Assembly: GCF_026571515.1 (NCBI RefSeq)
Contig: NW_026853286.1
Location: 62,001-126,000, forward strand
DNA from: Ruditapes philippinarum
Lineage: Eukaryota
DNA length: 64,000 nucleotides
Direction: 5' to 3'
The notes beneath the pieces are model-generated. The model worked only from the letters and a program-made list of their open reading frames with translations. It had not been told where the DNA came from and did not search any database. The translations under genes and the position numbers were made by a program. Below are positions 9,901 to 48,724 of the stretch, piece after piece (positions within the stretch are counted from its first letter, which is position 1; every line of letters begins with the position of its first letter).

Positions 9901-10789
9901 CGGACGAACGGTTCAATTACACAAATTAAAACCGTTCGGATTCTGTATTCATGTGTGAATTAACCTCTCATGTGGCTTAAAGCATCTCGTAATAATTATC
10001 CCGCTGCTGTCGTGAAACACTATGTCACAGGTCATTTTTTCTTTTTTAGAATATTTCATAACCATACTCTACTTATCACTCTCGTCATTTATTCATCTCG
10101 TACAAATCACTTCATTGTAACACGTTGACGGGCCTCAGTTACTATTAATATCCATAAGTTGCTGGACCACATTGGCTATATCTTAACACTTCAGGAACAA
10201 AATATCCCAACACTTGAGTGTATACAATGGCACAGTCTAAACGCTCACAATAATTATAGAGAAAGAGCGAAACACGGACGATATAAATAGCAGATGGTTA
10301 ATTTGGATAATAATCAAATTGGATATAATGGCACGTGTTTTAATGTACAATAAGATTCCGTGATAATGGAAATCTGATAAATTAAGTTAATAGTGCTTTG
10401 AAAGAATTAAAAAAAAAGATTGAATTTTATGTCACTTTTATTACGTTTTATTATAGATATATTTATATTTTATATGATAATTCATGTTTGTTACTCCATT
10501 ATCCTTCAAAAATAACTTTCTTTGTATAAATATTGCAATAAATGGTAAGGGTAGTTAGACTTCTTACGTCTTCATCTAAAACTATTCTTACGTGCATATA
10601 TAGGACACCCGCGGACGATAAAGAAAGTAAACAGACAAAAAAAACATAAAGTAAAATAACAATGGCGATACAGTTGTAAATGATATATTACAAACGAAAT
10701 ATAATTAAATACTTACATATGTTTACATTTTATTTTGCTGAACAAGCATATATGTCTTGTCAAGACGTGTATAATGACTCATTTAGTGT

Positions 10790-12457
10790 TCTCTTGAAAG
10801 TGGATTTCAACATATAGGCCAGATATATGTATTATGACTCTCAAATGTTGAGATTTCAACACAGACACAAGATATATGTAATATGTCTCTCAAGTGTTGG
10901 GATTTTAACATCTAGACATGATATTTCTATAATGACCCTCAAATGTTGGGATTTCAACATGTAGACCAGATATATGTATTATGTCTCTCAAGTGTTAAGA
11001 TTTAAACATATTGACACGATGTATGTATGAGGTCTCTGAAGTGTTGGGATTTCAACATGCAGACAAGATATATGTATTATATCTCTCAAGTGTTGGGATT
11101 TCAACACATACACATGATATATGTATTACGTCTATCAAGTCTTGGGATTTTAACGTCTAGACAAGATATTTCTATAATGTCCCTCAAGTGTTGGAATTTC
11201 AACATATACAGTAGACATGATATATGTATTATGTCTCTCAAGTGTTGGGATTTTAATGTGTAGACAAGATATTTCTATAATGACCCTCAAGTGTTGGGAT
11301 TTCAACATGAAGACAAGATATAATTATAATTAGTCTCAAATGTTGGGATTTTAACATCTAGACATGACATTTCTATAATGTCCCACAAGTGTTGGGATTT
11401 CAACATGTAAACAAGATATATGTATTATGTCTCTCAAGTCTTGGGATTTTAACGTCCAGACAAGATATTTCTATAATGTCCCTCAAGTGTTGGGATTTCA
11501 ACATATAAACAAGATATATGTATTATGTCTCTCAACTGTTGGGATTTTAACGTCTAAACATGATATTTCTATAATGACCCTCAAGTGTTGGGATTTCAAC
11601 ATATAAACAAGATATATGTATTATGTCACTCAAGTGTTGGGATTTCAACACATACACATGATATATGTATTATGTCTATCAAGTCCTGGGATTTTAACGT
11701 CTAGACAAGATATTTTTATAATGTCCCTCAAGTGTTGGGATATGAACATTTAAACATGATATATGTATTTTGTCTCTTAAGTATTGGGATTTTAATGTGT
11801 AGACAAGATATTTCTATAATGTTTCCCAATTGTTGGGATTTCAACAAATAGACAAGATATATGTATTATGTCTCTAAAGTGTTGGGATTTTAATGTGTAG
11901 ACAAAATATTTCTATAATGACCCTCAAGTGTTGGGATTTCAACATATAGACATGATATATGTATTATCTCTCTCAAGTGTTGGGATTTCAACATATAAAA
12001 AAGATATATGTATTATATCTCTCAAGTGTTGAGATTTAAACATATAGACATGATATTTCTATAAAGACCCTCAAGTGTTGGGATTTCAACATATAAACAA
12101 GATATATGTATTATGTCTCTCAAGTGTTGGGATTTTAACGCCTAAACAAGATATTTCTATAATGACCCTCAAGTGTTGGGATTTCAACATATAGACAAGA
12201 TATATGTATTATGTCTCTCAAGTGTCGGGATTTTAACGTCTAGACAAGATATTTCTATAATGTCCCTCAAGTGTTGGGATTTCAACAAATAGACAAGATA
12301 TATTATATATTAATATTATATAATTAACTATTATGTCTCTCAAATGTTGGATTTCAACATACCGGTATAGACATGATATATGTATTATGTCTCTCAAGTG
12401 TTGGGATTTTAACGTCTAGGCAAGATATTTCTTTAATGACCCTCAAGGATTGGGATG
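10790..12457 (+). repeat. 49-bp satellite array (two largely alternating subtypes, ~98-bp higher-order unit)
   Basis: Unit GACAAGATATATGTATTATGTCTCTCAAGTGTTGGGATTTCAACATATA alternates with the variant ..ATATTTCTATAATGACCCTCAAG..; spacing is 49 bp (e.g. 10891 to 10940). Confidence 0.95.
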
Positions 12458-12542
12458 TCCAACACTTGAGGGTCATTAAACATATATGTTTAGACATTAA
12501 AATCCCAACACTTCAAAGACATAATACATACATACATATATG
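12458..12542 (-). repeat. Same 49-bp satellite in reverse orientation (start of right arm, cut by the Ngaro insertion)
   Basis: CCAACACTTGAGGGTCATT..AATCCCAACACTTCAAAGACATAATACATA is the reverse complement of the unit. Confidence 0.85.
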
Positions 12543-12654
12543 TATTTTATAGATAGATAAAATATTTTATGTCATTGTTGAACAATCAGTAAATCAAACC
12601 GACTCTTAATGTAGGTTAAACTAGTAAATCAAACTGACTCTCAATGTATATTTG

Positions 12655-12782
12655 GCATTGGCCAATCTGAGAGCACCCTTAACGTCACGTGCTCTCTAAC
12701 AACCAATCAATCAACGGCATCGGCCTTTCTGGAAAAAATTTTAGAAGGGAAAAGCACGCTACATCTGCTCTGCTATAATTTT
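12655..12782 (+). promoter_or_regulatory. Candidate Pol II promoter in the A1 repeat
   Basis: Two CCAAT boxes (~12663, ~12703), an ACGTCACGTG CRE/E-box (12682) and TATA-like CTATAATT (12774), ~230 bp upstream of the SGNH ATG. Motif-level evidence only. Confidence 0.4.
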
Positions 12783-13002
12783 AAATTTACAAGTTTTCAC
12801 ACATTGTTACGTCTGGAAGTTAACGGTAAAACGTTACATTCATCCTTCTTTAACTTTTGCATATAAAATCGCTGCAACACGGATGTTCTTAATTTAGGAA
12901 ATTGGATGAGTTTGTATTTTCATTGTGCACAACGAGTGACGTCATCCTTTGAGGCTTTGTGTGATAACAGTGCCTTTGTGATATAACAGTGCCTGATTCA
13001 AT

Positions 13003-13611
13003 ATGGCGGCATCGATCCAGATATTTGGTCATTCCTTTGTTTCCCGTCTGAAATCTTTTCTACGGAATGAACCACATCTTCATTTTAACTTAAACTTAAC
13101 TTCGCTCCCGTTGGTACAATATTCGGGTTATTCAGGAGCTAAGGTGGAAACACTCCGGAGGAATTTTACGGACATTACGGATTTCGCTCCAGATATTGTT
13201 GTACTTTTGATTGGGACAAATGATTTATGTCAACCGGATGTTGACCATGTCAGTGTTTCCGCAGCAATATTAGACTTAATTGATAGTTTACTTTTCTTGG
13301 GAAACGTAAAAAGGGTGATCTGCTGCCAAATATTACACAGACGGCCTTCACAGTCAACACATCATCACGTTGATACAACATGGTTTAATAATCGTGTAGA
13401 TGAGACAAATTACATCTTGTCAACGAACATTCAAGCATTGCCCCATGGCCGTGCCACTTTCTGGCGTTTAAAGGGATTTTGGTCTCCAGAAGCGCAGTCT
13501 CAGGTCTTTGCATTAGATGGGGTACATTTGTCCGTCATGGGTCAAAAGAAGCTGTACTCTAACATCCGTGCTGCAGTGGTTGCCACTTTAAATAATGGTC
13601 TAGAGATATGA
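13003..13611 (+). CDS. SGNH/GDSL-family hydrolase (esterase) ORF of the Ngaro element, 202 aa, intact
   Basis: All four SGNH blocks are present: I FGHSF, II SGAKV, III IGTND, V DGVHL. Confidence 0.9.
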   Translation: MAASIQIFGHSFVSRLKSFLRNEPHLHFNLNLTSLPLVQYSGYSGAKVETLRRNFTDITDFAPDIVVLLIGTNDLCQPDVDHVSVSAAILDLIDSLLFLGNVKRVICCQILHRRPSQSTHHHVDTTWFNNRVDETNYILSTNIQALPHGRATFWRLKGFWSPEAQSQVFALDGVHLSVMGQKKLYSNIRAAVVATLNNGLEI

Positions 13612-14387
13612 AAGATATGTATTCCATTTCATTTTTCTGTTCTAGAAGTTTATGCTTGTAGGGGTCGTCCAAGTCACTTGGATGAACTCATTTTTCCATC
13701 TATTTTCACAAGCTGAATGACAAGTTTAAAGTTTACAAGATTTTACAAATTTGTTTATATGCATACAGTCACCTTTAATAAGGCGATACCTGTGTGATCT
13801 ATGCTTTTATAACTAATTAATAGATATACAGATTGGTATATAACTGTTTGATATAATTCATATTGTTACAGAACAAGCGGTATACAGCTTTTTGGGTAGT
13901 CATTTTCCATTTACATACAGTATTATTGTATAAACTTGTGTATATCTGGATATGTTCATATCCGGGAAAAATGTTCTAATATGTACAAGTTTTGAACACT
14001 TAACAAATTTAACCGCATCAATATTTAGTACTCAATTCAAGGTCAAGCTTGTTAACATATTAGATATATATTATAATGTGTATAATACAAAAATAGGCCT
14101 TTTACCTAAAGGTCAGTTTTGGGTTGGTGTTTCAACATTTGCTTTTCAAGCTCAATTTAATTTTTTTTTGGCTTTTAGCCAAATATACTTTTAGCCATTA
14201 TATTATATTTACTCACGGCCTTTTAAATTAGAGTACAACTTTCTGAAGGTTTTCATCTGAAGCACTTCTTAATCAGTCTGTAAGGTCTCAATTAGTAAAT
14301 TATTAAACAAATACCACGTCTCGACAAGGAAGGGCAGTCAATTAATTTCCGGAAATAACATGCTCGATTTTCCAGTCTAGACTGTGA

Positions 14388-14735
14388 AGTTCCAGACTAT
14401 GTTCTGATGTTACCATGCTTATATATCAATTGCCAGACTATGTTCTGATGTTCCAGACTATGTTCTGATGTTCCAGACTATGTTCTGATGTTCCAGACTA
14501 TTTTCTGATGTTCCAGACTACGTTCTGATGTTCCAGACTACGTTCTGATGTTCCAGACTATGTTTTTATGTTCCAGATTTTATTCTGGGGCTACAACATT
14601 TAGTAATGATTCTCCAGACTATGTTCTGATGTTCCAGACTATGTTCTGATGTATTTATATTTATCTATTGTTTCCAGAATTTTTTCTGATGACGCAGTAT
14701 TTTACTGTTTCCAGACTATGTCTGATGTTCCAGAT
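14388..14735 (+). repeat. 20-bp minisatellite (GTTCCAGACTATGTTCTGAT)n inside the Ngaro element
   Basis: Visible 20-bp periodicity at 14430-14580, with scattered copies to 14735. Confidence 0.9.
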
Positions 14736-14910
14736 TATTTGAATTTATTTATTATTTTGTTTGTCTGATGAAAAATAATATTTTCTACAGGATATAACCA
14801 GAAAAAATAGTGTTGGTTTACTCTGGCTTTTTTCTTTCAGATGAAACGCAATAAACGTTCGGCCACAGTGAGCCATTGTAATATGCCATGCTGTTCTAAT
14901 AGTAATAAAG

Positions 14911-16083
14911 ATGATGTACAGAGTCCGACGACGGCTCATTTGGAAAACAATGGGCAAACTCGCAGGAAAAAGACCAAAAATGATCAAAAGTCACTCAGGG
15001 GTAAAAAAATCCAGTCAAAGCTCAACACAGCAAGCTGCCCAACTAGCAGGGGGAGGTGATATAACTCATAAAAACAAACAGGCTGTAAGCAGATCACACC
15101 AGAAGAGGAAAAGGGGTACAGTCCCTCATCAGTCGCCATCTTCTAATTTCAATCAGGAGGAAAATGACATTCAAGTCCTGCAGGTATCGGAGGATGAAGA
15201 AACCTCAACCTCAGAAAAGTCAACATCCTCAGACGAGGAAGAGAGTGATAATGACGAAGGCTTTATAAATTTCAGGGACATAATATCGTCCCATTCAAAT
15301 TACATTACAGGTAATGCTCTAGAAATGACACAATTTGTCGAACCAGTCTCCACCCCCATTTCGCATTCCATACCAAAGTCGGTCATTAAAAAAATCCAAA
15401 CTAACAAGTTTGTGGACTTCTCTCGCCTTTTGCCAAACATGGCCTTGCCCCAAGCTGAAAATTATTCTTTAACATTAAATGCTAATAACCATTTAAGTTT
15501 GGTACCTAATTCATCTTCCAGAAAAATCCAGTCCATTGAAACATGGACAACAGCCTTTTTAAGGTTTTCAGCCATTTATGCTGCAACTTTTCCCCATGAA
15601 ATGCCTCAATTAATGAAATATGGGGAAATAGTGAGAGATTTGGCCCGTCGGCGTCAAGGTTTGGGATGGTCATTCTATGACAACCAATTTCGCATGTTTC
15701 GCGAAAGGGAGCTAATGCCATGGGACAGGATTCACACAGAATTCTGGGTCATGGCAACCTCTCAACTGGCACCCCATCATAATGGGTCATTTCAGAGTAA
15801 TCGGCCCTTTCGTACAGGGTCCAGTAGGCAATTCAAATCCGGTTATAGTTACAGGAAACCCTCTAAATTCCTTGAAAATACCTGCTGGACCTTCAACAGA
15901 CGAGGTTTATGTCGGGAACCCCGATGCTCCAGGCCTCATGTCTGTGGATTCTGTAGGGGGGCCCACTACGCCGGCCAATGCTCATTTACTAATAAAGACC
16001 AGGCCATTACCTCCAGTCCCTCCTTTAGTCAGGCCACAAAATCTCAAAACACTCCCACAGTCAACCGTATTCCCAAAAAATAA
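14911..16083 (+). CDS. Gag-like ORF of DIRS/Ngaro element (true start uncertain, possibly 14841 with a frameshift)
   Basis: Basic/acidic low-complexity N-terminus, DIRS-gag core (FVDFSRLL, IETWTTAFLRFSAIY, WSFYDNQFR) and C-terminal CCCH+CCHC fingers CWTFNRRGLCREPRCSRPHVCGFCRGAHYAGQC. Confidence 0.88.
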   Translation: MMYRVRRRLIWKTMGKLAGKRPKMIKSHSGVKKSSQSSTQQAAQLAGGGDITHKNKQAVSRSHQKRKRGTVPHQSPSSNFNQEENDIQVLQVSEDEETSTSEKSTSSDEEESDNDEGFINFRDIISSHSNYITGNALEMTQFVEPVSTPISHSIPKSVIKKIQTNKFVDFSRLLPNMALPQAENYSLTLNANNHLSLVPNSSSRKIQSIETWTTAFLRFSAIYAATFPHEMPQLMKYGEIVRDLARRRQGLGWSFYDNQFRMFRERELMPWDRIHTEFWVMATSQLAPHHNGSFQSNRPFRTGSSRQFKSGYSYRKPSKFLENTCWTFNRRGLCREPRCSRPHVCGFCRGAHYAGQCSFTNKDQAITSSPSFSQATKSQNTPTVNRIPKK

Positions 16084-17649
16084 GGTTGGCCAGGTTACTA
16101 CACCAGTTAAGGTTTCTGTTTTGTCTACATACTTGCAAGGTTACCCAAACCGGAAATACTTAATTAATGGTTTCACAATAGGTTTTAAGCTAGGTTACAT
16201 TGGTCCTCGTCAATCTACATCATGCTCCAATCTAAAGTCCTGTTCAGAACTTCCCGATGTGGTTTTACAAAAGCTTCAAGCAGAAATCTACGCAAAACGC
16301 ATTAAAGGTCCTTTTCATGAAAGGCCTTTTCCTAATTTCCATATCAGCCCAATTGGCTTAGTTCCAAAGAAAACTGTCGGCGACTTTCGTCTTATTCACC
16401 ATTTAAGCCATCCAAAAGGTTCATCAATAAACGACCACATAGACCCAAACCTAGCTACGGTTAAATATGCCTCTTTTGATGATGCGGTAGCAACTCTGTT
16501 AAAATATGGCCCTGGTTGTTTCTTTGCAAAGACTGATATTCACAATGCTTTCAGGTTAATACCTCGGATCATGAGCTTTTAGGGTTTAGCTTTCAAGGTA
16601 AATATTACTATGATACATGCCTCCCGATGGGGTCATCTAGTTCATGTTCCATTTTCGAAGCTTTTAGCACTTCTCTTCAATGGATTGCTACCAACAAGTT
16701 AAAAATTCCTCACATTGTCCACATATTGGACGATTTTTCTTTCTTTGGTCATGATTTTAAGGCTTGTCAAGGTCATCTAGATCAATTTCTTAACCTCTGT
16801 AAAGTCATGGGTGTCCCAATAAAACAAGAGAAAACCGAGTCAGCCCGTCGAGTCATCGTATTCATGGGCTTAGAACTTGACTCCATAACTATGGAGGCTC
16901 GTCTTCCCCAAGATAAGCTATCTAAGTTAAGGTCTCTATTATTATATCATACAGGTCGTAAAAAAAATAACACTTAAGGATTTACAATCTTTAATTGGTC
17001 TTCTGAAATTTTTGCTGTTCAGTAGTCATACCAGGCCGTTGTTTCTTACGGCGTTTAATCAATTTAACAGTAAAAGTTTCAAAACCTACACATAGGATAA
17101 CTTTGTCAGCCGATAGTCGGCGGGATCTCAAAGCTTGGTTTTTGTTTACCCAACATTTTAATGGCAAAAATGTCCTTCTTAAACAACGGTGGTTATCAAG
17201 TCCCTCATTACATTTACACACTGATGCTGCTGGGTCACTTGGATATGGAGCTATTTTTAACAATAGTTGGTTTTATGGGGAATGGCCAAACCATATGACA
17301 TCATTCCACATCACATTTAAAGAACTTTTTCCTATAGTTTTAGCATTGGAAATCTGGGGTACAATTTTAAAAAACAAATGTATTATCTTACACTCAGATA
17401 ATTATGCTGTAGTTCATATTATCAACAAAACAATCTTGCAAAGATTCTGTTGTTATGAAGTTAGTTCGGCGCTTAGTTTTAACATGCATGCAACATAATA
17501 TTTTGATACAGGCTAAACATATACCAGGAAAGGATAATGTTTTACCAGATCTCCTTTCACGTTTACAGGTCAAACAGTTCCGCCTTTTGGCACCACAAAT
17601 GGACGACCAACCTACCAAAATACCAGAACAGTTGCTGCTTCTTCACTGA
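15782..17649 (+). pseudogene. Reverse transcriptase-RNase H ORF of Ngaro element, frameshifted (pieces 15782-16582, 16627-16977, 17103-17498, 17455-17649)
   Basis: RT motifs ISPIGLVPKK, FRLIHHLS, KTDIHNAFR, LPMGSSSS, HILDDF, FMGLELDS. RNase H motifs HTDAAGSLGYG, ITFKELFPI, HSDNYAVV, HIPGKDNVLPDLLSR. Overlaps the gag 3' end as is typical for DIRS elements. Confidence 0.9.
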
Positions 17650-18591
17650 ACTCTTCGGTCTTACACATACTATTAAAATCCCTGGCACCGTCCACAAGAA
17701 ACAGTTACCGAAATGCTTTCAAACAGTATAGCCGTTTTCATAATACTTACTACACTAAGTTCAAAGGCTCCCTTCTTCCTATTCCAACTTATAAAATGGC
17801 ACAGTTCATTGCAGTATGCCACTGATAGGCCCGGCCTTTAAACCGGCCGACTATATCAACTTGGATATCAGCTTTGTCCTATACTTCATCGTCTTCACAG
17901 GTTAAGAAATCCTTCTAAGGCATTTTCATTATTAAGAAACTGTTATACAGTATTAGGAAAAACTAAGGGTCTCGGACAAACGTCACGGTTTCACTATTCC
18001 TTTGCTTAGGTCATTAATCCAATCTTTGAGCAAAATTACTGCAAATCCATTTACCAAGCTCCTACTGAAAACGATTGTACCTGGTGGCTTTCTATGCCTT
18101 GCTTCGTCTTGGAGAAATTTCAGTCACCAAAACGGGAAAAGGCCAATATTGTTAAACTTGAAATGTTCATTTTTCAATATGATAAGTCTCGGCTCAATAG
18201 TGCCTCCATCCATCTCACTCATTTTAAGCATTCAAAAGGCCAGACAGCCAAAAATTTGTGCTGAGTAGGTCAAAACACAGACAACTTTGTCCTGTACGCA
18301 CATTAGCTTAATTATGTCAGTCAGATCTCCTCGTGTAATGGCCCGTTATTCCGCTTTAGTACGTGGTCACCCGGTACAGCATCTTTCTTTAGGCGTATGC
18401 TAAAACGCTGTCTAGTAGAAAGCGACTAGATCCTACCAAATATACATCTCACCTCTTTTCGAATCGGAGGGCAACCTTAGCACATGACCTGAATTTCTCT
18501 AATACACAAATCCAACAGTTAGGCCGTTGGTCTTCACAAGCATATACCAAAATATCTGCGGCCCAGCCTTTCTAAGGGACCAATCAAATAA
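17650..18591 (+). pseudogene. Tyrosine recombinase ORF of Ngaro element, many indels
   Basis: Reading across frames gives LLKSLAPSTRNSYRNAFKQY, YLVAFYALLRLGEI (catalytic R), HFKHSK, YTSH(S)FRIGG (HxxR) and IQQLGRWSSQAY..YLRP (GRW, catalytic Y). Confidence 0.85.
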
Positions 18592-18720
18592 GGTCCTTTG
18601 TAACAAATTCAAGGATTTCACTTTGGGTACAGACAAGTTCAATACTAATTGTCAAATTAAAAGTATGGCTAGGGCCTATGCATAGTCCACTCTATCCTTA
18701 TTGTACACTTGATAATATTG

Positions 18721-19912
18721 TTGACTGTCTGAGGCAGCAAAGTTTATTGTACAATATACATTTTAGATTGTTATTGTAGTACAACCGGGTTTTACGCGGT
18801 GATATTTTCATACTCAATGACGGTATAGGCATCTACATACTACATAAGTGTTACAATTTCATGTGTCATTACTAGAGCATTATATATATTTATACATCTT
18901 ACTATACATAATTTTATTAAGGAGTGGAGCTCCATGTATGATCTTTATGATAAGCTGCAATTCCCTCAACTGTCTGAGGCAGTGAAGACTTGGAGCACAT
19001 GCTTTGAATAAAATTGTCGCATGATTATATTTAATTATTAAGGCAAAATAGATATCTAAAACTTCTCTCGTATAGATTAAGGAATGTCACTTTACGACTT
19101 ATTTTAACTACGGACTACAGAGGCAGCGAGCCCTAAATTGTCACGTCTTTAATTTTTCTTATTGCCGATATAAAGCTAGTTTCACTCGAACTGTCTGAGG
19201 CAGCGAGCAAACGGTTCAGTTTCAGTAATTTATGGATTAATTGCCTTATTTTAACTTAGACGTCTTGAAACAGCGAGCTATTTGTCACATATTTAAATTT
19301 TATTGATGTTACATTATTACAAAATTGGTCTCATGTTTGGTTGTATTTTATTTTGCCTGATTTTCACTCGATGTCTTTGAGGCAGTGAGCTATTTGTCAC
19401 ATTGTTGTTCATTATATAATACTTACTTCCACTCGACTGTCTGAGGCAGCGAGCAAATTGTCTCAGGTTTTGTAATTTTATTATGTTCATGATATAGTGC
19501 CTTATTTCACTCGACTGTCTGAGGCAGTGAGCTATTTGTCACATGTTTGAAATTTGCATTATGTACATCTTTTGATACTTATTTTTACTTGACTGTCCGA
19601 GGCAGCGAACAAAATGTCTCATATTTGGTAATTTGATTATGTTCATGATATAGTGCCTTATTTCACTCGACTGTCTGAGGCAGCGAGCTATTTGTCACAT
19701 GTTTGAAATTTTATTATGTTCATATTATGATACTTATTTTCACTCAACTGTCTGAGGCAGTGAGCAAATTGTCTTCTGTTTGGTAATTTTAGTATGTTCT
19801 TGATATAGTACCTTATTTCACTCGACTGTCTGAGGCAGTGAGCCATTTGTCACATTTTGAAATTTTATTATGTTCATATAAACTTAATTTCACTGACTTC
19901 GAGAGCGAGCTA
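18721..19912 (+). repeat. Array of ~13 conserved 22-nt hairpins (CTCG-A-CTGTC-TGA-GGCAG-CGAG); last six within alternating ~78-bp units
   Basis: Copies at 18721, 18966, ~19108, 19185, ~19255, 19367, 19432, 19510, 19588, 19666, 19743, 19821, ~19892. Confidence 0.85.
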
Positions 19913-21100
19913 GTGTTTTTCTTGAATTTTTAAAATGTCATTGCCTTTTCTCCAGTTTTATCCTTTTCTTTAAACTTGCTCGGGTTTGGGGCAGCGAAGA
20001 GTATTCCTGTTAGAATTTTTATTTTTTTCAAATTTCATACCCCCGGGGTTTTAAAAAGGTTTTCGATATTTAAATTTTTTTCAAAGTCAATTTTTATATG
20101 CACTCTTATTTTTAAGGGATGGGGACTTATAAAAAATTTTTATCTTTTTCCCCGTTATCGGGGGCACCAGTCCAACAGTTTCCGGGCTTTATTGGGGGTA
20201 TTTGTTCACCCGATTTTTGAAAAATTTATATGTAGTAATTTTGTTTTTTTGGCAAAATAAATTGCCCGTTTCAAATCAATCATGATTTTTTTTAAATTTC
20301 CCCATACACGTCCAATCGGCTTCCCATAAAAAAGAGCCATAAATTTTTTTAGATAGATAAAAATTTTTTGTATGTTTAACAATCAGAAAACAAAAGCTCT
20401 TTAATGTAGGGTTAAACTATAAATCAAAATACTCCAATGTATATTTTCAGCCAAACTGAGGACCCTTAACCACGTGCCTCAAAAACCAAACAATCAACGG
20501 GATCGGCCCTTTTTGGAAAAATTTTTGAAGGGGAAAAACACGCACATTTTTGCTCTGCTTTAATTTTTCCCCCACCTCCCGTTTTCCTCCTCCGCTATGT
20601 TTTTCTCAAGGGTTACCAATAGTCAATATTAATTTTGAAACGATGTTTTGTATTAATTTTAAAATAATTTTTGACAGTTATGCTGTTCCTTTATTAACTA
20701 GAGTCTTAAAATAATTTTTGACAGATTACTGTTCCTTCATTAACTTAGATAAGTATGTTATTGTTGTTGTTGTTTATGTATATTATTGTTAGGCGGTATT
20801 TGTTCACCCAGATATGGGAAAATTATTTTATATGTATGTAATTATGTTGTTTTCGGCAAAATAAATTTGCCCGTTTTGGCGGTATTTGTTCACCCAGATA
20901 TGGGAAAATTATTTTATATGTATGTAATTATGTTGTTTTCGGCAAAATAAATTTGCCCGTTTTCAATCAATCATGATTTTGCTTATGAATTTCCCCATAC
21001 ACAGTCCACAGGGTCAGTGCTTCTCTATAAACAGATGCACATAAATATATATATATATATATAAAACAAAAAACACAGTCCATGAGTTAACTTATTTAAT

Positions 21101-21141
21101 TATTTGCCAACCGGTTTCTCTTATGATCATCAGGGCAAATA
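21101..21141 (-). ncRNA. Minimal type I hammerhead ribozyme in Penelope pseudo-LTR
   Basis: Minus strand reads TATTTGCC-CTGATGA-TC(ATAA)GA-GAAAC(CG)GTT-GGCAAATA: 8-bp stem I, intact core, 2-bp stem II and palindromic ACCGGT stem III. Confidence 0.88.
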
Positions 21142-21208
21142 TGACGTCGTCGCATAGTAACGACGTTTTAGTGTACACATGTGTACGCATAATCTAAAAA
21201 TAGTAACG

Positions 21209-22409
21209 TCATAATATAGTATTAAGTTTTGGATTAGAAACATCAATAAAATAGCGTTCTTTACATAACCTAGCTGAAACGTTTTTACTGTGAAATTTAT
21301 AAAATGGGAAAATACAAAATTTCGGGTCTTTTTTAGAGCATTTATCTAAATGTTCACTTAAAGGTAATTGTCTTGTTGATGGGTCTCTTATCTGCTGAGC
21401 ATGAACAGTTTTTCTGTTTCTGAGTTTGTCGCCTGTTTGGCCTATGTAAAATTCTTTGCAGCCGTTGCAAACTAAAACATATAAAACATTTTCAACAGTA
21501 CAGTCCATATTTTCTTTTGTATGAAATATTTTATCCTGAAGTTTTAAAGAATATCCTTCTATTAAATAATCACAGAGGCCACACCTCTGTTCGTTGCATT
21601 TTTTAACACAGGGTATTATATTGTTGTCTTTAAATTCTGAACTTATTAAAATGCTTTTTAAATTTGGTAATTGTCTTTTGCATTTTATTATGTTGGTGTT
21701 GCTTATTATCTTTTTCATTTTTTCATCATGTGTCAGAATTTCCATGTTTGTTTTAATTATGCCAAACAATTCTCTGATTTTCGGGTTACATGTTGAAATA
21801 TATGGAAGAATTTTGTTTTTTGATTGCTCTTTAACTTGAAGTAAGGTGGTTCGAGGAATCTCCAAAGCTTTTTTAATACCAGTTTTTATAAGTTGAATTG
21901 GAAATTTTCTTTTAATTAAAGTGATGGCGAGTTCCTTAAGTCTAATCTTTAGTATTTCCTTATCCGATACAATCGAGCATATTCTCCTTGCTAGCGAAAA
22001 CGGGATATTTGTTTTAATGTGTTTTGGATGACACGATTTAAAATTTAGATATTGTTTAGAATCGGTACTTTTAAAATATACATCAGTGACTATATATGTT
22101 CGTTTCTTAATAACCATTACATCTAAAAACGGACGTCTGTCTGTACTTTGTTGTTTCTTAAATTGTATATCTTTATGAAGTGAATTAAGTATTTTTTCAA
22201 AATATAATAAATCCGTTAGAGATCTTTGCCAAAATATAAAACAATCATCCAAAAATCTTGTCCAGTTACATTGAATATAATTAGCAAAATCTTCACCTTT
22301 CTGTTTGATAATTTCTGAATACAATTTTTCTTCTAAATAACCTAGTACAAGTGTTGCATATGTTGGAGCAACCTTTGTCCCCATGGCTGTACCTTTTACC
22401 TGTTTATAA
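21209..22409 (-). CDS. Penelope RT/GIY-YIG polyprotein, 5'-truncated open frame
   Basis: Same motifs as the element above. The first ~13 codons of the ORF-track entry are antisense read-through of the inverted piece. Confidence 0.85.
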
Positions 22410-22410
22410 C

Positions 22411-22907
22411 AAAACCAAGTACATTTTACGGACTTCCTAAAATTCATAAAAGTAAGATTATTCCAGAAATATGCAAATCAAAATCCTCTGAATATATTGA
22501 AATACTTAATCCGGAAGACTTAACATTTAGACCTATAGTTGCTGGTCCTCAATGTGAAACTAGCCATTTAAGTTCTTTTCTTGAAAATTTATTAAAACCT
22601 ATTGTGGGAAAAGTGAAAAGTTACTTGAGAGATGATATTGATTTTCTGAATATCATACCAGAGAAAGTTGAAGAAAGTACAACTTTAGTTTCATTTGACA
22701 TAGTTAGTTTGTACACAAATATACCCCATAAACTAGGTTTAGAAGCCATTTCATTTTGGTTAAATAAGTACCCAGAATTAATTACATCTCGTTTTGATAA
22801 GAGCTTTATATTAAATGGCCTTGAAATAATTTTACAAAATAATATTTTTTCATTTAATAATCAATATTATAAACAGGTAAAAGGTACAGCCATGGGGGCA
22901 AAGGTTG
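22411..22907 (+). mobile_element. Penelope RT N-half, inverted relative to the 3' part
   Basis: Plus frame reads KPSTFYGLPKIHK..FRPIVAGP..SYLRDDIDFL..LVSFDIVSLYTNIPH..YKQVKGTAMGAKV. Confidence 0.9.
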
Positions 22908-23630
22908 ACACTGACAAATGGATTATGTGTACTTTATGTCCAAATAAATGGCATTTTTCATGTACAGGTGAACCGACGAAGTTGAGTTAGTGATAAAAAA
23001 CAACTTTGTTTGCCAGTTTTGTGTCCAGTTTGATAATTGATGGTCAATGATTGTGCGTATATGTATGTACTTAATACGCAATATATATACTTCAAATCAT
23101 TTCAAAAGCAATGAACAGGTAACGTTCTTATCAATCAAATATATCCGTGCATGAACTGTATAATTACGAACCTTTTCAGAACTTAAAAGAAACGTGATTT
23201 TTACTTCGAAAATGATTTGTTTTATTTATTATATTTGAACATCGGCCCTCGAATTCTTTCATTAGTTGAATGTCATTTTATTGTCTTATACTGAAAATTG
23301 GAATTATATTTAATGATTGAATATGGTTTATAAAATCTTAATCTAATTGCACAGTAAAACAATAAATGTTTCATGTTCTCTTTTCAATTTTTAAAAACAA
23401 ATTGGAGTATGTCGAAATTAGACGAAACATGTCGAAATTATACGACGATATCTATGTTCGTAAGAGAGATATTGCAAATCAAACAAGACATTCTTGTTCG
23501 TTTACATAATCAAGAAGTATTCCCAAAATGTTAGTTTCACATTCGGGTTAAAATCGGATCTTGTAATATCGACACCTAAACATTTGTGAGCAAAATTCTC
23601 TTAAAGTGTCGAAATTACCCGATGTTACTC
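22908..23630 (+). mobile_element. 3' fragment of a Tc1/mariner-pogo-like DNA transposon (PHD-finger C-terminus + right TIR)
   Basis: WIMCTLCPNKWHFSCTG...FVCQFC PHD-like remnant, repeated GTCGAAATTA motifs (23411, 23432, 23608) and an end ..GAAATTACCCGATGTTACTC|TA. Confidence 0.55.

Positions 23631-23721: not shown

Positions 23722-23794
<73 letters not shown>
23722..23794. repeat. (TA)n microsatellite
   Basis: Direct read; a shorter (TA)n lies at 21045-21063. Confidence 0.95.
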
Positions 23795-23795
<1 letters not shown>

Positions 23796-24960
23796 TAAAA
23801 TCCCAACATCATAATACAAATATCTTATCCAGACTTTCAAATCCCAACACTTGAGAGACATAGTACATATATCTTGTCTATATGTTGAAATCCCAACACT
23901 TGAGAGACATAATACATATATATCTTGTCTATATGTTGAAATCCCAACACTTGGGGTTCATACTTGAGAGACATAGTACATTAATCTTGTCTATATGTTG
24001 AAATCCCAACACTTGAGGGTCATTATACAAATATCTTGTGTAGACATTAAAATCCCAACACTTGAGAGACATAATACATATATCTTGTCTATGTGTTGAA
24101 ATAACAACATTTGAGAGACATAGTACATATATTTTGTCTTTATGTTGAAATCCCCACACTTGAGAGACAAAATACATATATCTTGTCTATATGTTGAAAA
24201 TCCAACACTTGAGGGTCATAATACAAAGATCTTATCCAGACGTTAAAATCCCAACACTTGAGAGACATAATACATTTATCTTGTCTATATGTTGAAATCC
24301 CAACACTTGAGGGCTAATATACAAATATTTTGTCTAGACATTAAAATCTCATTGCTTGAGAGACGTAGTACATATATCTTGTCTATATGTTGAAATCCCA
24401 ACACTTGAGAGACATAATACATATATCTTGTCTATATGTTAAAATCCCAACACTTGGGGTTCATACTACAAACATCTTATCCAGACGTGAAAATTCCAAC
24501 ACTTGAGAGACAAAATACATACATTTTGTCTCTGTGTTGAAATAACAACATTTGAGAGACATAGTACATATATCTTGTCTATATGTTGAAATCCCAACAT
24601 TTGAGACTCATAATACATATATCTTGTCTACATGTTGAAAATCCAACACTTGAGGGTCATAATACAAATATCTTATCCAGACGTTGAAATCCCAACACTT
24701 GAGAGACATAATACATATATCTTGTCTATATGTTGAAATCCCAACACTTGAGGGTCATTATACAAATATCTTATATAGACGTTAAAATCCCAACGCTTGA
24801 AAGACATAATACATATATCATGTCTATATGTTGAAATCCCAACACTTGAGAGTCATAATACATATATTCTGTCGATATGGCGAAATCCTAACACTTGAGA
24901 GTGATAAAAATATCTACTTTGTTTTTATGTTGAAATAAAAACTTTGAGAGTCATAATACA
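23795..24960 (-). repeat. 49-bp satellite, reverse orientation (continuation of right arm)
   Basis: Units TGTTGAAATCCCAACACTTGAGAGACATAATACATATATCTTGTCTATA are the reverse complement of the 10790-12457 units. Confidence 0.95.
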
Positions 24961-24974
24961 TGTACTAACTAGTA

Positions 24975-25342
24975 TGTCACGGTTCAGAACTGATCACTAT
25001 TAAGGGGAATTGGTGTGATAAGCGGCCGGATAGCTCAGTCGGTAGAGCCGCGATACGGTACGTATTCCGAGGTTATCGGGTTCCTGTCCCGGCCAGACTG
25101 CACATTTTTCTCGCCTTGTGACATTTGGGGCCCAACAGGGGATACAGTGATGGTATAAACTCCGAGTTTAATTTCACATTGTTGTCTGTACCCATTTCAA
25201 TATAGCGGAGGAGTATAAAAATGTGCAGGCTGATCGGGACTCGAACCCGGAACCCCGATTGGAATACTATACCGCGGCTGTACCGATTGAGCTGTCCATC
25301 TGCTTACCCAATATTTCCCCTAAATAGTTTTGAACCGTGACA
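24975..25342. mobile_element. Twin inverted tRNA-containing mini-LTR element (TRIM-like with Pol III boxes)
   Basis: LTR1 24975-25123 runs TGTCAC..GTGACA and contains tRNA-Lys-like GGATAGCTCAGTCGGTAGAGC. It is followed by PBS-like TGGGGCCCAACAGGGG. A related copy lies on the minus strand from 25342 to ~25197 with B box GGTTCGAGTCCC. Confidence 0.7.
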
Positions 25343-30750: not shown

Positions 30751-32491
30751 ATGGAAGTTACTGGACGTAAAGAGTCTTCTAGGTCTGCTATATTTTGTCG
30801 TCCATGTCAGCGTGATGATGAAACAGTACACGCGGAGGGTTATTGTGAGACTTGTAATGAATTTATTTGCTCATCATGCATTACGGCACACCGGAAGTTG
30901 GCAAGCACAAAAAGTCACATGATTAAATCCAGAGATGAGATGTCGACATATCAGGCTGAAAGCGATCCATGCACTGAACTCTGTGATGTTCATGTAAACG
31001 AAATAGTGAAAGTTTTATTGCCAGCAGCACGACAGCGTTTGTTGTGGAGATTGTATGGTACTTAATCATACCTCTTGCAATGTTTAAAGCTTGTTTCAGA
31101 TGTTTCAAGTAACTATGACAACAGCGACGATCTTTTGCGAATCAAACCCCCACAAAAGAAGAAACTTGATTTTTTTTTCAAATCTCAGAAAGAAACATTG
31201 CATCGTGCGAAAAAGAAATAAAAGGCAGTCTGGAAACAGCTGAAAAAATAAAAAACCAATACCATATCAGAGAAATTAAACGATTCCGTAAAGAAATTGA
31301 AAGACTACCTGAACAAAATGGAAGAAGACCTGTTACAAAAGGTTGATGAAATGAGATGCCAGCGATTTCTCAACACAGGCGAAAGCTTCAGGATCAATGT
31401 CCAAGGCATTGGCTCGTGACAAATTGAAGATTTTGAAAATAAACTAGATAAGTGTAAAGACAAGGTCAATTCTTTGTTTGTGGCATCTAAAAGCGTTAGA
31501 GAAAAGTCTTCATAATTGTCTGAAAAAAAATGAATGAGGAAATTTCATCCAAAAGTAAAATAAAACATTCAAATTCATACCCTCTGAATATATCAAACAA
31601 TTTGAAAAACACGCAACGAATGCCTTGGCAAAATTAATATACAAGTGAAGAGATTCGCGGGACAATGCAAGGGTTACTTTTATTGGCACGAGAACATGCT
31701 TTGTACAGAAACTAAACAATAAAGCGAAACATGACAGAGACTGTTTCATAAAGGATATGGCAGTCATGTCTGAAGAATGAAATTCTGCGTGCAGATTGGA
31801 AAAAACAGCTCATTGAAGGTTTTAAATCATAGAAAAAAGGCAAAATCACATCAAACACTGCAGTTGTCAACTTCTCCCGCTGGAGTCACTACAATTACCC
31901 CCTCATCAGCTGCCAGCCACTTTACCAATGAAAAAACAAAATCTTGTTCCTGACAACACAAAGTGGATTGACTAAAAGTCATAAAATATCTGTTCGATAT
32001 GGATGCGCAGGGAATAGATCATCGCGATGGTATATTGGCTGTTACTTTTGCGAACCTCCTCTGTTATGGTGATGGACACGAAAGGTCAAATTCTCCTGAA
32101 TCTCGTGGATAAAAAATCGACTGAAACTTTCCCACGATATATATCCCTGAGTAACAACAATAAGAGTATGCTAGTGTCTGACTTGGATAACGAAGTCGTG
32201 TATGAAATTAACCTCAAAGGAGAGCTGCAAGCTACAAATAAAAGTGTAAAGATGGGCAAACCTCTAGGCATAACAGTTACCAACTGTGGATGTGCTGTTG
32301 TTTGTTATCGAGGTAAAAGCGAAAAAGCCGGACTGATTGTACCTGAAACAAGGATAATACTGCCTTTCTCCCTGGATAATGTACTTATACCATGCTCTAT
32401 CCTGATTTCCGAAGAACAACGCAAGTTGTTTATCAGTGAACATGAAACATCAGCAGACTGCAATTTCATAAAAATGTTTTACAACAAGTAA
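30751..32491 (+). pseudogene. RING-less TRIM-like gene copy 1 (B-box1, B-box2, coiled coil, beta-propeller); frameshifted as assembled
   Basis: Near-identical to 38166-39854 at both ends. Many 1-nt indels, mostly A-run expansions, between 31010 and 32060 may be sequencing error. Confidence 0.8.
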
Positions 32492-37172: not shown

Positions 37173-38165
37173 CTTATTATTACTCATTGGCCAACTACAA
37201 GAACCATGTTTTCATCTGCTTGTTGGCAAAAAGTACAGTTATAGTGATATTGTTAAATTTGTATGAAAGTCAAAATATTTCTTTGTTTACAGTTTGCTAC
37301 TTTTAAGACAAATTATTTCACATTTATGTCTTTTTCTTCACGTATTTTCACGTAACAAGTATCTTATATTCCCTAAAACCATTATTGAAACATTATAAAA
37401 TTCATGTTTGCCATTTGCTAAAAAAGTAAAAATATATTTGAGCGGTCACATGAAATTTCCAACATAGTGGTCAACTTTGACATTTTACTTTTTTCAAAGA
37501 TTATCAAAATGCATTCTTTCCATTTTATATAAAGCAGGATGGGATTTCAACAACTTAAAGCGTCTTACGCGCACATCCACTACACTTTACAATTGTCTCT
37601 TAATCATTTACTCTTTTTTTTGAGGGTCCTTTATATAAAACAATGATATACATGTGATATGAAATCTTCCTTCTTCTATTTGCATTAAAGTGTATATTCC
37701 AATTTATCTTCGTATCAGCAACGGCAGAAATACTAAATAATAAATTAGCAATCAAAAGAATACATGTAACAATTGCTTAATTATTTTAAGTAAGTAAGCC
37801 CTGGGAGTGTTTTCTGTTGCAAGGTCAATATGCCAAGTGCCGTTTGATTATTCCTTGAAATTTTGTTCAAGAGATTTACAAAAAGAATTTCACCACAATA
37901 CATTTGCTAACAATAGAGCACTTGTCAATGTCTGTGGTTAAATCTCAAGTACACCATCATGCACATACATATATAGTTATATCTTATATTAGCTGAACGG
38001 CATTCTTCGCTATTCACTGTTTGAAGAAGGGGACACGTAATTAAAGCACATATTTGCTAAACAAAAAAATCTTAACTATTCTTTATTTTTATGGATGTGT
38101 TTACTCTAACGATACTGCTGAGACAATTAAAACAGGTTAATAAGTAAATAAAATAAACAATAGGA

Positions 38166-39854
38166 ATGGAAGTTGCTGGACGTAATGAGTCTTCCAGGCC
38201 TGCTATATTGTGTCGTCCATGTCAGCGTGATGATGAAACAGTTCATGCGGAGGGTTATTGTGAGGCTTGTAAAGAATTTCTATGCTCATCATGCATTTCG
38301 GCACATCGGAAGTTGGTCATCACAAAAAGTCACATGATTAAATCCAGAGATGAAATGCCGACATATCAGGCTGAAAGCGATCCATGCACTGAGCTCTGTG
38401 ATGTTCATAAAAACGAAATAGTAAAGTTTTATTGCCAGCAGCACGACAGCGTTGGTTGTGGAGATTGTATGGTACTTCAACATACCTCTTGCAATGTAAA
38501 GCTTGTTTCGGATGTTTCAAGTAACTATGACAACAGCGGCGATCTTTTGGGAATCAAACACAGAATTGATCATCTTAGAAAGAACATTGCATCGTGCGAA
38601 AAAGAAATAAAAGGCAGTCTGGAAACAGCTGAAAAAATAAAAACCAATACCATCAGAGAAATTAAACGTTTCCGTAAAGAAATTGAAGACTACCTGAACA
38701 AAATTGAAGAAGATCTGTTACAAAAGGTTGATAAGATGAGTGCTAGCGATTTCTCAACACAGCGAAAGCTTCAGGATCAATGCAAGGCATTGGCTCGTGA
38801 CATTGAAGAATTTCAAAATAAACTAGATAAGTGTAAAGACAAGGTCAATTCTTTGTTTGTGGCATCTAAAAGCGTTAGAGAAAGACTTCATAAGTGTCAA
38901 AAAATGAATGAGGAAATTTCATCCAAAAGTAAAATAAACACATTCAAATTCATACCCTCTGAATATATCAACAATTTGAAAACACGCAACGAATGCCTTG
39001 GCAATCTTAATATACAAGTGAAGAGATTCGCGGGACAATGCAAGGGTACTTTTATTGGCACGAGGACATGCTTTGTACAGAAACTAAGCATTAAAGCGAA
39101 ACATGACAGAGACTGTCACATAATTGGTATGGCAGCCATATCTGAAGATGAAATTCTGTGTGCAGATTGGAACAACAGCTCATTGAAGGTTTTAAATCAT
39201 AGAGAAGGCAAAATCACATCAACATTGCAGTTGGAAACTATTCCCGCTGGAGTCACAAAAATTACCCCCTCGTTAGCTGCAGCCATTTTACCAATCAAAG
39301 GCAAAATCTTGTTCCTGACAACACAAAGTGGATTGATTAAAAGTCATAAAACATCTGTTCGACATGCATGCATGGGAATAGATCATCGCGATGGTATAAT
39401 GGCTGTTACTTTTTGGAATCCTCCCGCTGTTCAGGTGATGGACACGAAAGGTCAAATTCTCCTTGATCTCGTGGATACAAGTATACTGGAGTATCCGCAA
39501 TTTATATCCCTGACTAACAATAATAAGAGTATTCTAGTGTCAGACTTGGGTACCAAAGCCGTGTATGAATTTAACCTCAAGGGAGAGCTGCAAGCTACAA
39601 ATAAAAGTGTAAAGATGGGCAAACCGGCAGGCATAACAGTTACCAACTGTGGATGTGCTGTTGTTTGTTATATAGGTAATAGCGATAAAGCCGGACTGAT
39701 TGTACCTGAAACAAGGAAAATACTGCCTTTCTCCCTGGATAATGTGATACTAACATTGTCTATCCTGATTTCTGAAGAACAACGCAAGTTGTTTATCAGT
39801 GAACATGAAACATCAAAAGACTGCAATTTCATAAAAATGTTTGACTACAAGTAA
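38166..39854 (+). CDS. RING-less TRIM-like protein: tandem B-box zinc fingers, coiled coil, degenerate NHL-like beta-propeller; 562 aa, single coding exon
   Basis: B-box1 CRPC..AEGYCEACKEFLCSSCISAHRKL..SH and B-box2 CDVH..FYCQQHDSVGCGDC..HTSC, a heptad-rich helix, then propeller blades (CADWNNSSLKV, PAGVT, CMGID, VSDLG, PAGIT). Likely UTR-intron acceptor AACAG|G ~30 nt upstream. Confidence 0.92.
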   Translation: MEVAGRNESSRPAILCRPCQRDDETVHAEGYCEACKEFLCSSCISAHRKLVITKSHMIKSRDEMPTYQAESDPCTELCDVHKNEIVKFYCQQHDSVGCGDCMVLQHTSCNVKLVSDVSSNYDNSGDLLGIKHRIDHLRKNIASCEKEIKGSLETAEKIKTNTIREIKRFRKEIEDYLNKIEEDLLQKVDKMSASDFSTQRKLQDQCKALARDIEEFQNKLDKCKDKVNSLFVASKSVRERLHKCQKMNEEISSKSKINTFKFIPSEYINNLKTRNECLGNLNIQVKRFAGQCKGTFIGTRTCFVQKLSIKAKHDRDCHIIGMAAISEDEILCADWNNSSLKVLNHREGKITSTLQLETIPAGVTKITPSLAAAILPIKGKILFLTTQSGLIKSHKTSVRHACMGIDHRDGIMAVTFWNPPAVQVMDTKGQILLDLVDTSILEYPQFISLTNNNKSILVSDLGTKAVYEFNLKGELQATNKSVKMGKPAGITVTNCGCAVVCYIGNSDKAGLIVPETRKILPFSLDNVILTLSILISEEQRKLFISEHETSKDCNFIKMFDYK

Positions 39855-41278
39855 AGTGATTTTTATCTCATAAAAAGTTAGGTTTTTTTTTATAATAAAC
39901 AATGTATTAAATATTCTTTCGGTCATTTTTAGGTTATTGTATTTTGTCTTTATGTAGAATATTTAAGACAGTCTCACAATGTGCAAGGTTATAACATATG
40001 AAAGAAACAAAGAACAATTTATATGTTATGATTTATACATTTAAACAGTACTGTACATGTGTTACGGTTGCATATTTCTGTTAAGACATAAATACTTCAT
40101 TTTCAAGTTAATTATCTTCCTAACTTCATGTCATGTAATTAGTTTCGTATTAGAAACAATTATGTGAAAAACTATAGATATGTTTTTTCATAAAACAATT
40201 GAATGACGTCGACGAATGTATGTAAAAAGAACCCACAAAGTTCAACCAACACTTGTCAAATAAATAAAAGATAATAATTTGTTTGTCTACATTTTTTGTG
40301 TTAGTAAGTTGATGAGATAGTTTAGTTTAGTTAGTTAGTTACTTAGTTACTTATTTAGTTATGTAAATCTTTGTTGAATCAACAACTTGAGGATAAATAA
40401 GCCATTGTTTATGGAACGTGCCAGGAATATTGCTCATGGCAATCTGATGACCTTATTATGTTGTGCGCAGACTTAATTATCTCGTTCACACCACACAGTA
40501 ACTCGTGCGCACGACTTGATTACCTTTGTGCATCACTTAGTAACTCGTGCGCACGACATAGTGTCTCGTGCTCACCACTTAATTATATCGTACACAGTCT
40601 CGTGCTCACCACTTAATTATGTCGTACACACGACTAAGTAACTCATGTGCACGACATAATGTCTTTTGCGCATGACTTAATTATCTCATGCGCAAGAATA
40701 GTAAATAGTGAGCTCGACAGTATATCGTGTGCACGACTTAATTATTTTGTGCAAACGGCTTGAAGATCTCGTGAGCACGATTTAGTAATTCCTGCTTATG
40801 ACATAATATAATACATAAAAAAACACACGTCACTTCTGTGTCACCGACACAACATATGTACCAAATATTAAAAACAATATTTTAATGTATGAACGACACA
40901 CAAAATCGCCTTTAGGACGCAAGCCAGGTTGTCATTCTCACGAATGATCTTTGATTTATACAGAATTATACAGATTTTATTTTCGTTCGATTGTGAAGGA
41001 AGCAATGAACTTATAGACACACGCTACATTCCATTCCTGGACCCAACCACTATTGAGCAATGAATGTAAGATTTCTTGCTCAAAGAAACAACGGCTTGCC
41101 TCTGACGGGATTTGAACTAAACATCCTCAGAATGAGTTATCTTTAAATACAAAGGAAAAATGAGAAATACATGACGTACTTGTGAAAAATTGAAACCAAT
41201 CTGACATTGTTATGAAGATGAAATATTAATAATGGTGTGAAAACTGTAAAGAGAGAACCATGCACTTATACATGTATT

Positions 41279-48487: not shown

Positions 48488-48724
48488 GAGCCGCGTCAAG
48501 ACAAAACCAACATAGTGGGTTTGCCACCAGCATGGATCCAGACCAGCCTGCGCATCCGCGCAGTCTGATAAGGATCCATGCTGTTCGCTATCAGTTTCTC
48601 TACTTGTAATAGGATTTATGTAAGCGAACAGCATGGATCCTGATCAGACTGCGCGGATGCGCAGGCTGGCCTGGATCCATGCTGGTCGCAAACCCATTAT
48701 GTTGGTTTTGTCATGACGCGGCTC
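48488..48724. mobile_element. Palindromic MITE (GAG..CTC ends, AWWT flanks; Sola-like)
   Basis: ~110-bp arms GAGCCGCGTCA.GACAAAACCAACAT..GGATCCATGCTGTTCGCT; same family as 53063-53286. Confidence 0.8.

Follow-up and report, generated by a model that had tools for sequence, protein, structure and literature searches.

Ngaro elements are tyrosine recombinase (YR) retrotransposons whose Gag protein bears a zinc finger. Among described elements with an SGNH hydrolase, those closest to the one reported here are the amphibian Ngaro-like elements DIRS-53_XT and DIRS-54_XT (PMC9210276), which have split direct repeats in the arrangement A1...B1-A2-B2 (236 and 152 bp), the genes gag, reverse transcriptase (RT)/RNase H and YR, no methyltransferase and one extra SGNH open reading frame (ORF); this ORF follows the YR and all ORFs overlap. 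We analyzed a 64,000-nt window of Ruditapes philippinarum (assembly GCF_026571515.1, contig NW_026853286.1, positions 62,001 to 126,000; positions below are those of the window) and found a Ngaro-like element with the same repeat arrangement, repeats of similar size and the same gene set, whose SGNH esterase gene lies before gag, 1.2 kb away from it and without overlap, inside a spliced intron. The locus thus does not fit the amphibian type, with SGNH after and overlapping the YR (PMC9210276). The initial annotation of the window had placed the known Ngaro SGNH genes downstream of the YR, which is borne out for Xenopus, and had proposed a distinct architecture here, a view that the SGNH-gag order conserved across several families upholds.

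Two other groups of elements carry comparable esterases. The ORF1 protein (ORF1p) of CR1/L2/RTE-X and Penelope-like elements, represented by zebrafish ZfL2-1 (Protein Data Bank 4C1B; PMC3905857), has the same catalytic set and the same 5' position. There, the esterase is one domain of a multidomain protein that also has a coiled coil, and the element has neither gag nor YR; the protein found here is a lone one of 202 aa. The transposon-specific H191 and S228 of ZfL2-1 (residue numbers from PMC3905857) are not kept, both aligning to Leu in the family profile, and the protein lacks both marks of the esterases of ORF1p in elements without long terminal repeats (LTRs), the multidomain setting and the transposon-specific His and Ser. 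In the bdelloid LTR element Vesta, the GDSL ORF3 is likewise a stand-alone accessory ORF; it belongs to an element with gag and pol, its catalytic residues are intact, and ORF3s are a separate transcription unit by a general statement of the paper (PMC5408684). Vesta ORF3 lies 3' of pol in the env position and is expressed by splicing; in the present element, splicing removes the accessory gene, and the integrase is a tyrosine recombinase.

In the literature searched, which did not extend to Repbase and key reviews, we came across no YR element with a hydrolase in a 5' or intronic position, nor one whose gag message is spliced. Introns have been reported in DIRS elements of Rhizopus, and mollusc DIRS entries in Repbase may show the gene order described here. 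Within that literature, what is new is the nesting of the esterase in a 5' intron, while SGNH-bearing Ngaro-like elements as such are known.

Gene order in the window and in relatives

In the window, the SGNH ORF is intact, has all catalytic residues and lies within the element boundaries; downstream of it, the same strand encodes gag, RT, RNase H and YR in that order, with 1,229 nt between the SGNH stop and the gag ATG. The intact ORF, its place inside the element and a distance of 1.2–1.3 kb to gag-RT-RNase H-YR had been noted in the initial annotation. We considered the possibility of a permutation, with the SGNH gene really following the YR of an upstream copy, and rejected it: the ORF lies 220 nt inward of A1, and the left flank of the element is a satellite.

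Using an alignment of SGNH proteins, we scanned metagenome contigs and found 14 loci. Seven of them (L001, L003, L004, L010, L011, L012 and L013) have a gag match downstream on the same strand, and L006 has a gag start as in L013 followed by an internal deletion, bringing the SGNH-then-gag order to 8 of the 14 loci. These eight represent six families at 41–55% SGNH identity and come from four data sets. At the other six, no gag match was found within the 26 to ~1,020 nt available downstream. Matches to gag, pol or YR upstream of SGNH were seen at none of the 14 loci, only four of which have more than 1.5 kb upstream to examine; that these four have none also speaks against a permutation, with the limited sensitivity of YR queries that are broken pieces.

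Annotated bivalve genes agree with the scan. In the oyster gene model XP_062601113 (Saccostrea), SGNH is followed by gag (E 6e-35 to the window gag), and a 479-aa SGNH-gag model is known; in the clam model KAL4238778 (Mactra), SGNH is followed by a gag-like N-terminus with a weak match (E 2e-4). In Dreissena, SGNH proteins form multicopy clusters, those of 7 and 14 members being mostly Dreissena-named, and the SGNH gene DPMN_107010 and the RT gene DPMN_107009 have adjacent tags, a sign of linkage and not of order. Scans of viral contigs and genome contigs returned no relatives, and a search among longer proteins gave no fused SGNH form, although this search was weak and the 479-aa model turned up otherwise.

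Three of the loci, L006 (9113-9680), L012 and L013, are internally deleted and keep the acceptor-gag start while having lost much or all of pol. Their SGNH ORF is whole in L006 and broken in L012 and L013, and they may be nonautonomous derivatives.

The 2-kb intron and its splice junction

Of 24 sequencing runs listed, 20 hold more than half of the element's words, most being RNA or guessed RNA. We analyzed four: X2 (guessed RNA), X19 (RNA on record), X13 (taken as DNA from its size and even depth) and X24 (listed as RNA-Seq). Contigs of X2 and X19, which come from two studies, contain the same joint, 12824>14840, which skips 2,015 nt and has GT..AG at cut +1. Its depth is 12 in X2, with a short side of 29 nt, and 27.1 in X19, with a side of 71 nt. 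Exon 2 opens with the gag ATG, the acceptor reading TTTTTTCTTTCAG/ATG. The joint is absent from X13 at a depth of about 190, and a contig of that run crosses the acceptor unspliced.

Both RNA forms appear to be present in the RNA runs. Unspliced contigs cross the donor into the ORF in X2 (12796-14462) and in X19 (12772-13028), and the depths in X2 are additive, 12 for the spliced and 6.7 for the unspliced form in comparison with 18.6 upstream and 19.8 downstream. The joint is also absent from X24, which is uninformative because this run looks like a Hi-C library: five of its six listed loose ends lie at GATC, 61% of the reads continue into dissimilar sequence, and there is no strand preference, as expected of Hi-C. 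We therefore rejected X24 as RNA evidence. In X13, a single 746-nt contig bridges the A1 end to the SGNH ORF at a depth of 192.7, the other listed contigs having depths of 148–206; as far as depth, which is not copy number, can be compared, this suggests no sign that most copies miss the SGNH ORF.

We searched for the acceptor in the relatives by requiring YAG with at least 9 pyrimidines among the 12 nt upstream, placed 0–5 nt before the gag ATG. The test was passed by five of seven identified gag starts (the window, L001, L010, L012 and L013), in comparison with 5 of 143 other ATGs in the spacers. Where the gag start could be defined independently, as the first ATG of the open gag frame, three of four loci passed. 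A candidate donor, AAG/GTGA, lies 170–205 nt before the SGNH ATG in L007, L009 and L013, the window donor lying 177 nt before it. The architecture, with SGNH upstream of gag in several families, is conserved and transcribed.

Several points weigh against this interpretation of the junction. The splice evidence consists of contigs from 4 of the 24 listed runs, with X2 only guessed to be RNA and the kind of X13 not on record; the unspliced contigs in the RNA runs may be DNA carry-over, and rare intron-less DNA copies may exist, as contigs drop rare variants. The window donor is weak and those of the relatives are candidates only. Among the acceptors, L004 (TTTTTCAG/ATG) misses the pyrimidine threshold and L003 has AT where its sibling L012 has AG; in three of the seven loci the gag start was chosen nonindependently of the acceptor, and L011, which has an array of acceptor-like units, was left unscored and excluded from the background. 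With these points weighed, we hold the gene order together with the splice with high confidence. As the SGNH ORF lies in the intron, the first product of the spliced message is gag and not the esterase. The initial annotation had called the esterase the promoter-proximal product, and this stands for the DNA, where it is the first ORF, and fails for the gag-pol-YR message, from which it is spliced out.

The intron also contains a 20-nt tandem array, and a similar array occupies the SGNH-gag spacer of L011 (~1100-1900). The units in both families contain an acceptor-like TTCCAG followed by (A/G)CTATG. From its sequence, the array may be a decoy acceptor set or a signal on the unspliced RNA.

The esterase, its expression and competing readings

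The SGNH protein matches Pfam Lipase_GDSL_2 (E 2.8e-9) and Lipase_GDSL, both above the cutoffs, and its domain begins at residue 4, leaving no leader. We aligned 23 of 27 search matches, excluding four partial or aberrant ones, and found S11, G45, N73 and H175 to be invariant and D172 to be present in at least 90% of the proteins, at 33–94% identity. The AlphaFold model has a pLDDT of 93.5. It resembles platelet-activating factor acetylhydrolase (Foldseek E 3e-10, TM 0.74), and structure comparison supports the SGNH fold with a Z of 20.3 and a root-mean-square deviation of 2.6 over 178 residues. The protein thus has the four-block catalytic residues and the alpha/beta fold of the SGNH/GDSL family. 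By sequence, the best match among solved structures is the esterase 4C1B of ORF1p of a long interspersed nuclear element (LINE), with E 1.1e-6. The protein family is basic, with pI 7.8–9.5 in the seven proteins tested.

The initial annotation had suggested a dN/dS comparison, and L006 versus L007 gives 0.25 for SGNH. Between families, the proportion of differences is 0.73–0.91 at synonymous (pS) and 0.30–0.44 at nonsynonymous sites (pN), and for 18 of 21 pairs no dN/dS could be obtained because the synonymous sites are saturated. Of the 11 substitutions listed within the ORF, 8 are synonymous, where a fraction of 0.23 would be expected (p 0.0007); the list covers 40 of the 147 rows for the whole stretch, which tempers this result. 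The esterase is under purifying selection.

Two groups of more remote proteins were noted during the searches. A 2,341-aa protein from ENA (P0156) has six SGNH-like stretches that match the family profile and whose catalytic residues look degenerate, and might be a relative that has been domesticated. Another group of stand-alone SGNH proteins, more remote from the family, gave 1,777 matches at E up to 1e-10, ranking below ~E 1e-38; for the nearest clusters, Atlas lists Mollusca and Cnidaria.

We consider the following explanation probable: the element is Ngaro-like with SGNH in a 2-kb intron before gag, the spliced RNA is the gag-pol-YR message and the unspliced RNA is the genome that is copied. 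This would invert the splicing logic of retroviruses, in which the unspliced genome RNA reads gag-pol and a spliced message, made via a 5' donor, reads env. Transcription would start in A1, and splicing would remove the esterase ORF together with two short ORFs upstream of it, all of which would mask the gag start if retained, placing the gag ATG beside an ATG-free leader. Reverse transcription would favor the unspliced RNA, since in X13 the intron is covered as deeply as the exons and the joint is absent. The unspliced RNA must in any case be the template for new copies, because the intron would otherwise be lost, and as the spliced RNA keeps both ends, some selection for the unspliced RNA is implied.

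The esterase would be a free protein of 22 kDa; a second, intronic promoter that gives a very short leader is its most likely source. The initial annotation had placed the SGNH ORF after A1 and its promoter motifs. The SGNH gene does follow A1, and the TATA-like site (12862) and the cAMP-response element (CRE, 12937) lie after A1 as well; the CCAAT boxes (12662 and 12703) and the E-box (12686) are inside A1, making A1 a likely promoter of the element as judged by motif scan. Several relatives have similar CCAAT/E-box motifs 200–380 nt before the SGNH start. Closer to the start, a CRE half-site is found within 80 nt in 6 of 11 loci, in comparison with 70 of 799 window bins; TCGCGAGA occurs in 4 of the 11, and the start reads A-N-ATGGCG in 6 of the 11, some of these loci being siblings. 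The sequence AAGATGGC is the published human TISU/YY1 core of short-leader mRNAs (PMC2518114); TISU being a mammalian element counts against its use here. On these motifs, we lean slightly toward expression of the esterase from its own promoter inside the intron.

The esterase might instead lack a promoter of its own and be read off the unspliced genomic RNA, on which it is the first long ORF, with splicing setting the esterase-to-Gag ratio in an inverted retroviral scheme. The contigs that cross the donor unspliced into the ORF are compatible with this, as are the strong start context and the sole AATAAA/ATTAAA site between the SGNH stop and the acceptor, at 14302. On such an RNA, however, two upstream ATGs (12883 and 12906) would precede the ORF, and in several families the 80 nt upstream of the start are crowded with CRE and TCTCGCGAGA-type promoter motifs, making this route unlikely in our view. 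It is more doubtful that the esterase gene is a passenger, acquired by the 5' intron in a single event and either without a role in transposition or kept only for a host-side effect. That it is spliced out of the main message would fit such a history, many Ngaro elements are described as having no hydrolase (PMC7192593), and the ORF1p of ZfL2-1 was dispensable in HeLa assays (PMC3905857). Yet the catalytic residues are invariant across 33–94% identity, comparisons between families show saturation at synonymous but not at amino-acid sites, and multicopy clusters, mostly of Dreissena-named proteins, occur. Selection must act as the element spreads, and we regard this history as improbable.

We give very little credence to the joint being a genomic deletion class of esterase-less copies, or an assembly artifact between repeats, rather than a product of splicing. 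The reliance on contigs and the 29-nt short side in X2 leave room for it, and the deletions in L006, L012 and L013 demonstrate that internal losses occur in these families. Against it stand the GT..AG ends, the polypyrimidine tract and the exact landing on the gag ATG, as well as the recurrence of the joint in two studies, its absence from X13 at a depth of about 190 and the same acceptor in four other families.

The explanation by a spliced gag-pol-YR message can be extended, with confidence falling a little short of even, to a bivalve-wide Ngaro lineage with reversed retroviral logic, in which Gag-Pol-YR comes from a spliced message, the intron, holding a selected esterase gene that has its own promoter, is kept through each retrotransposition and the esterase is a separately regulated accessory factor, a layout that would be undescribed. 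In such a lineage, the intron probably also holds a signal selecting the unspliced RNA for copying, and Ngaro elements probably carry the esterase at two different positions. In our main explanation, the esterase would act in trans as an accessory factor; by analogy with LINE ORF1 esterases, its most plausible task would be to bind or trim lipids of membranes, or acetyl esters, while particles are transported in the germ line; the ZfL2-1 enzyme hydrolyses short esters slowly and binds acidic phospholipids (PMC3905857). A role in lipid or membrane binding is a tentative proposal, which we doubt somewhat more than we believe. The zebrafish LINE esterase, with its two transposon-specific residues that this family lacks, is the sole basis of the membrane idea (PMC3905857), and the particle-forming or membrane-interacting lineage suggested in the initial annotation is not supported by our data.

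The Ngaro hydrolase is described as having no proven function (PMC9210276). The protein found here is small, free-standing and well folded and belongs to a transcribed multicopy family, which makes it possible to assay and to alter it without touching gag or pol. The locus further provides evidence, at the level of RNA, that an animal YR element undergoes regulated splicing, in a class of retrotransposons whose gene expression is almost untested outside Dictyostelium, and poses the question of how an intron persists when the spliced RNA still has both ends. It also identifies as transposon genes a class of multicopy gene models that are annotated in bivalves as "SGNH domain".

Element structure, classification and neighborhood

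The features of the element are listed in Table 1. Ngaro-like elements are defined by split direct repeats, the internal ones lying 3' of the YR (PMC4157794, PMC8547959), and by the absence of a methyltransferase (PMC4157794, PMC3266345). Self-comparison of the window gave the order A1-[ORFs]-B1-A2-B2 with the internal repeats downstream of the YR, along with gag with zinc fingers, RT/RNase H and YR, and we found no methyltransferase match in Pfam searches of the window pieces or of the pol of L003, which is unbroken over 637 aa. The YR frame overlaps RNase H and follows it without a gap. The element is thus Ngaro-like in its structure. A PAT lineage can lose its methyltransferase and mimic Ngaro (PMC4157794). 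PAT-like elements combine a methyltransferase domain with split direct repeats; the locus has no methyltransferase alongside its split direct repeats and was not assigned to PAT. Nor was it assigned to DIRS1-like elements, which have inverted terminal repeats and an internal complementary region, inverted matches in 12301-21300 being confined to the flanking satellite.

Table 1. Features of the Ngaro-like element, in window positions
Feature	Positions	Strand	Remarks
Repeat A1	12546..12783	+	Split direct repeat; self-BLAST to A2
End of noncoding first exon	12784..12825	+	No ATG in 12700-12825; donor ACG/GTAAAA
GT-AG intron	12826..14840	+	2,015 nt, holds the whole SGNH gene; joint in X2 and X19
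Candidate internal esterase promoter	12862..13002	+	TATA-like 12862, CRE TGACGTCA 12937-12944, start context AATATGGCGGC
SGNH/GDSL hydrolase, stand-alone	13003..13611	+	202 aa, no break; catalytic S11, G45, N73, D172, H175
20-nt tandem array within intron	14385..14738	+	Acceptor-like unit
gag-like ORF	14841..16083	+	ATG directly after splice acceptor; one frame break near 15000-15060
pol (RT and RNase H)	15716..17649	+	Overlaps gag and YR; three frame breaks; end coordinate read by eye
Tyrosine recombinase YR	17538..18591 (end approximate)	+	Several broken pieces; SAM-like N-domain
3' array	18724..19879	+	9 copies of a 14-nt core, the last six in 78/156-nt tandem; units can form a small hairpin
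Repeat B1	20192..20344	+	Self-BLAST
Repeat A2	20345..20567	+	80.6% to A1 in this assembly, many homopolymer indels
Repeat B2	20876..21048	+	TA run at its end; exact 86-nt duplication (20792-20963) before it

In Ngaro-like elements, A1 is expected to equal A2, and B1 to equal B2. In this assembly, the two repeat pairs are 78–84% identical: A1 (in the comparison, 12545-12782) and A2 share 80.6% by self-BLAST, and B1 and B2 (extending to 21065 in the comparison) share 78–84%. Contigs of X2 and X19 match A1 over 12552-12783 without a difference (232/232 nt) and continue into the sequence that follows A2; the mismatch of A1 and A2 may therefore reflect errors in the assembly or the decay of this copy. 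The reading frames of gag, pol and YR are all broken, and the SGNH ORF alone is whole. Since the runs have indels in common, relative to the window, at several breaks of pol and YR, we attribute the breaks to errors of this assembly or lesions of this copy.

A zinc finger in Gag is a classifying feature among YR retrotransposons (PMC4157794), and a CCCH plus CCHC-like motif was found in all three Gag proteins tested (the window, L003 and L010). In the window, the Gag N-terminus is K/R-rich and Cys-bearing, and the protein has CCCH and CCHC fingers. Pol is 62.5% identical in RT and 66% in RNase H to a Dreissena RT. The YR gave a weak match to Phage_int_SAM_4 (E 0.02, below the cutoff), and the motifs H-x-x-R and GRW...Y are visible by eye in translations of separate frames. 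A tree of RT sequences, inferred with unlabeled or bivalve-named relatives only (no labeled Ngaro, DIRS or PAT references; P0034 and P0144 dropped), placed the five SGNH-linked rows within one 18-row branch (99/97), beside 13 rows of unknown layout. Among themselves, the five do not form one side of a branch; the SGNH-linked elements may or may not have a single origin, the tree neither showing nor excluding it.

A role had been proposed for the hairpins of the 3' array, and it finds no support here. The units fold no better than shuffled sequences (z +0.2 to –1.4 for six units, –1.8 for the array), and the array has no match to an Rfam family. We rejected a ribozyme or structured-RNA reading on these grounds, and the array adds nothing to the argument for particles.

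The left ends of L006 (6653-6668), L013, L007, L009 and L012 have a common inverted core, TT(T/C)ATG-N4-CATAAA, which may be of the kind expected of a recombinase site. The ends of the window element (12546 and 21040) sit in a TA run. Directly to the right of the element are Penelope-like pieces in opposite orientations, 21209-22477 (–) and 22346-22990 (+), with RT and GIY-YIG (E 2.2e-5) matches, and the Ngaro-Penelope block is flanked by a 49-nt satellite at 10717-12530 and 23761-24996, inverted and ~80% alike. Further along the window, three related genes lie ~7.35 kb apart (32018-32491, 38157-39854 and 45429-47192) and appear by eye to be B-box/coiled-coil/NHL (TRIM-like); a broken LINE with endonuclease and RT (41222-44635) separates the second and the third. 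Two copies of a short inverted-repeat element at 48514-48689 and 53087-53251 resemble miniature inverted-repeat transposable elements.

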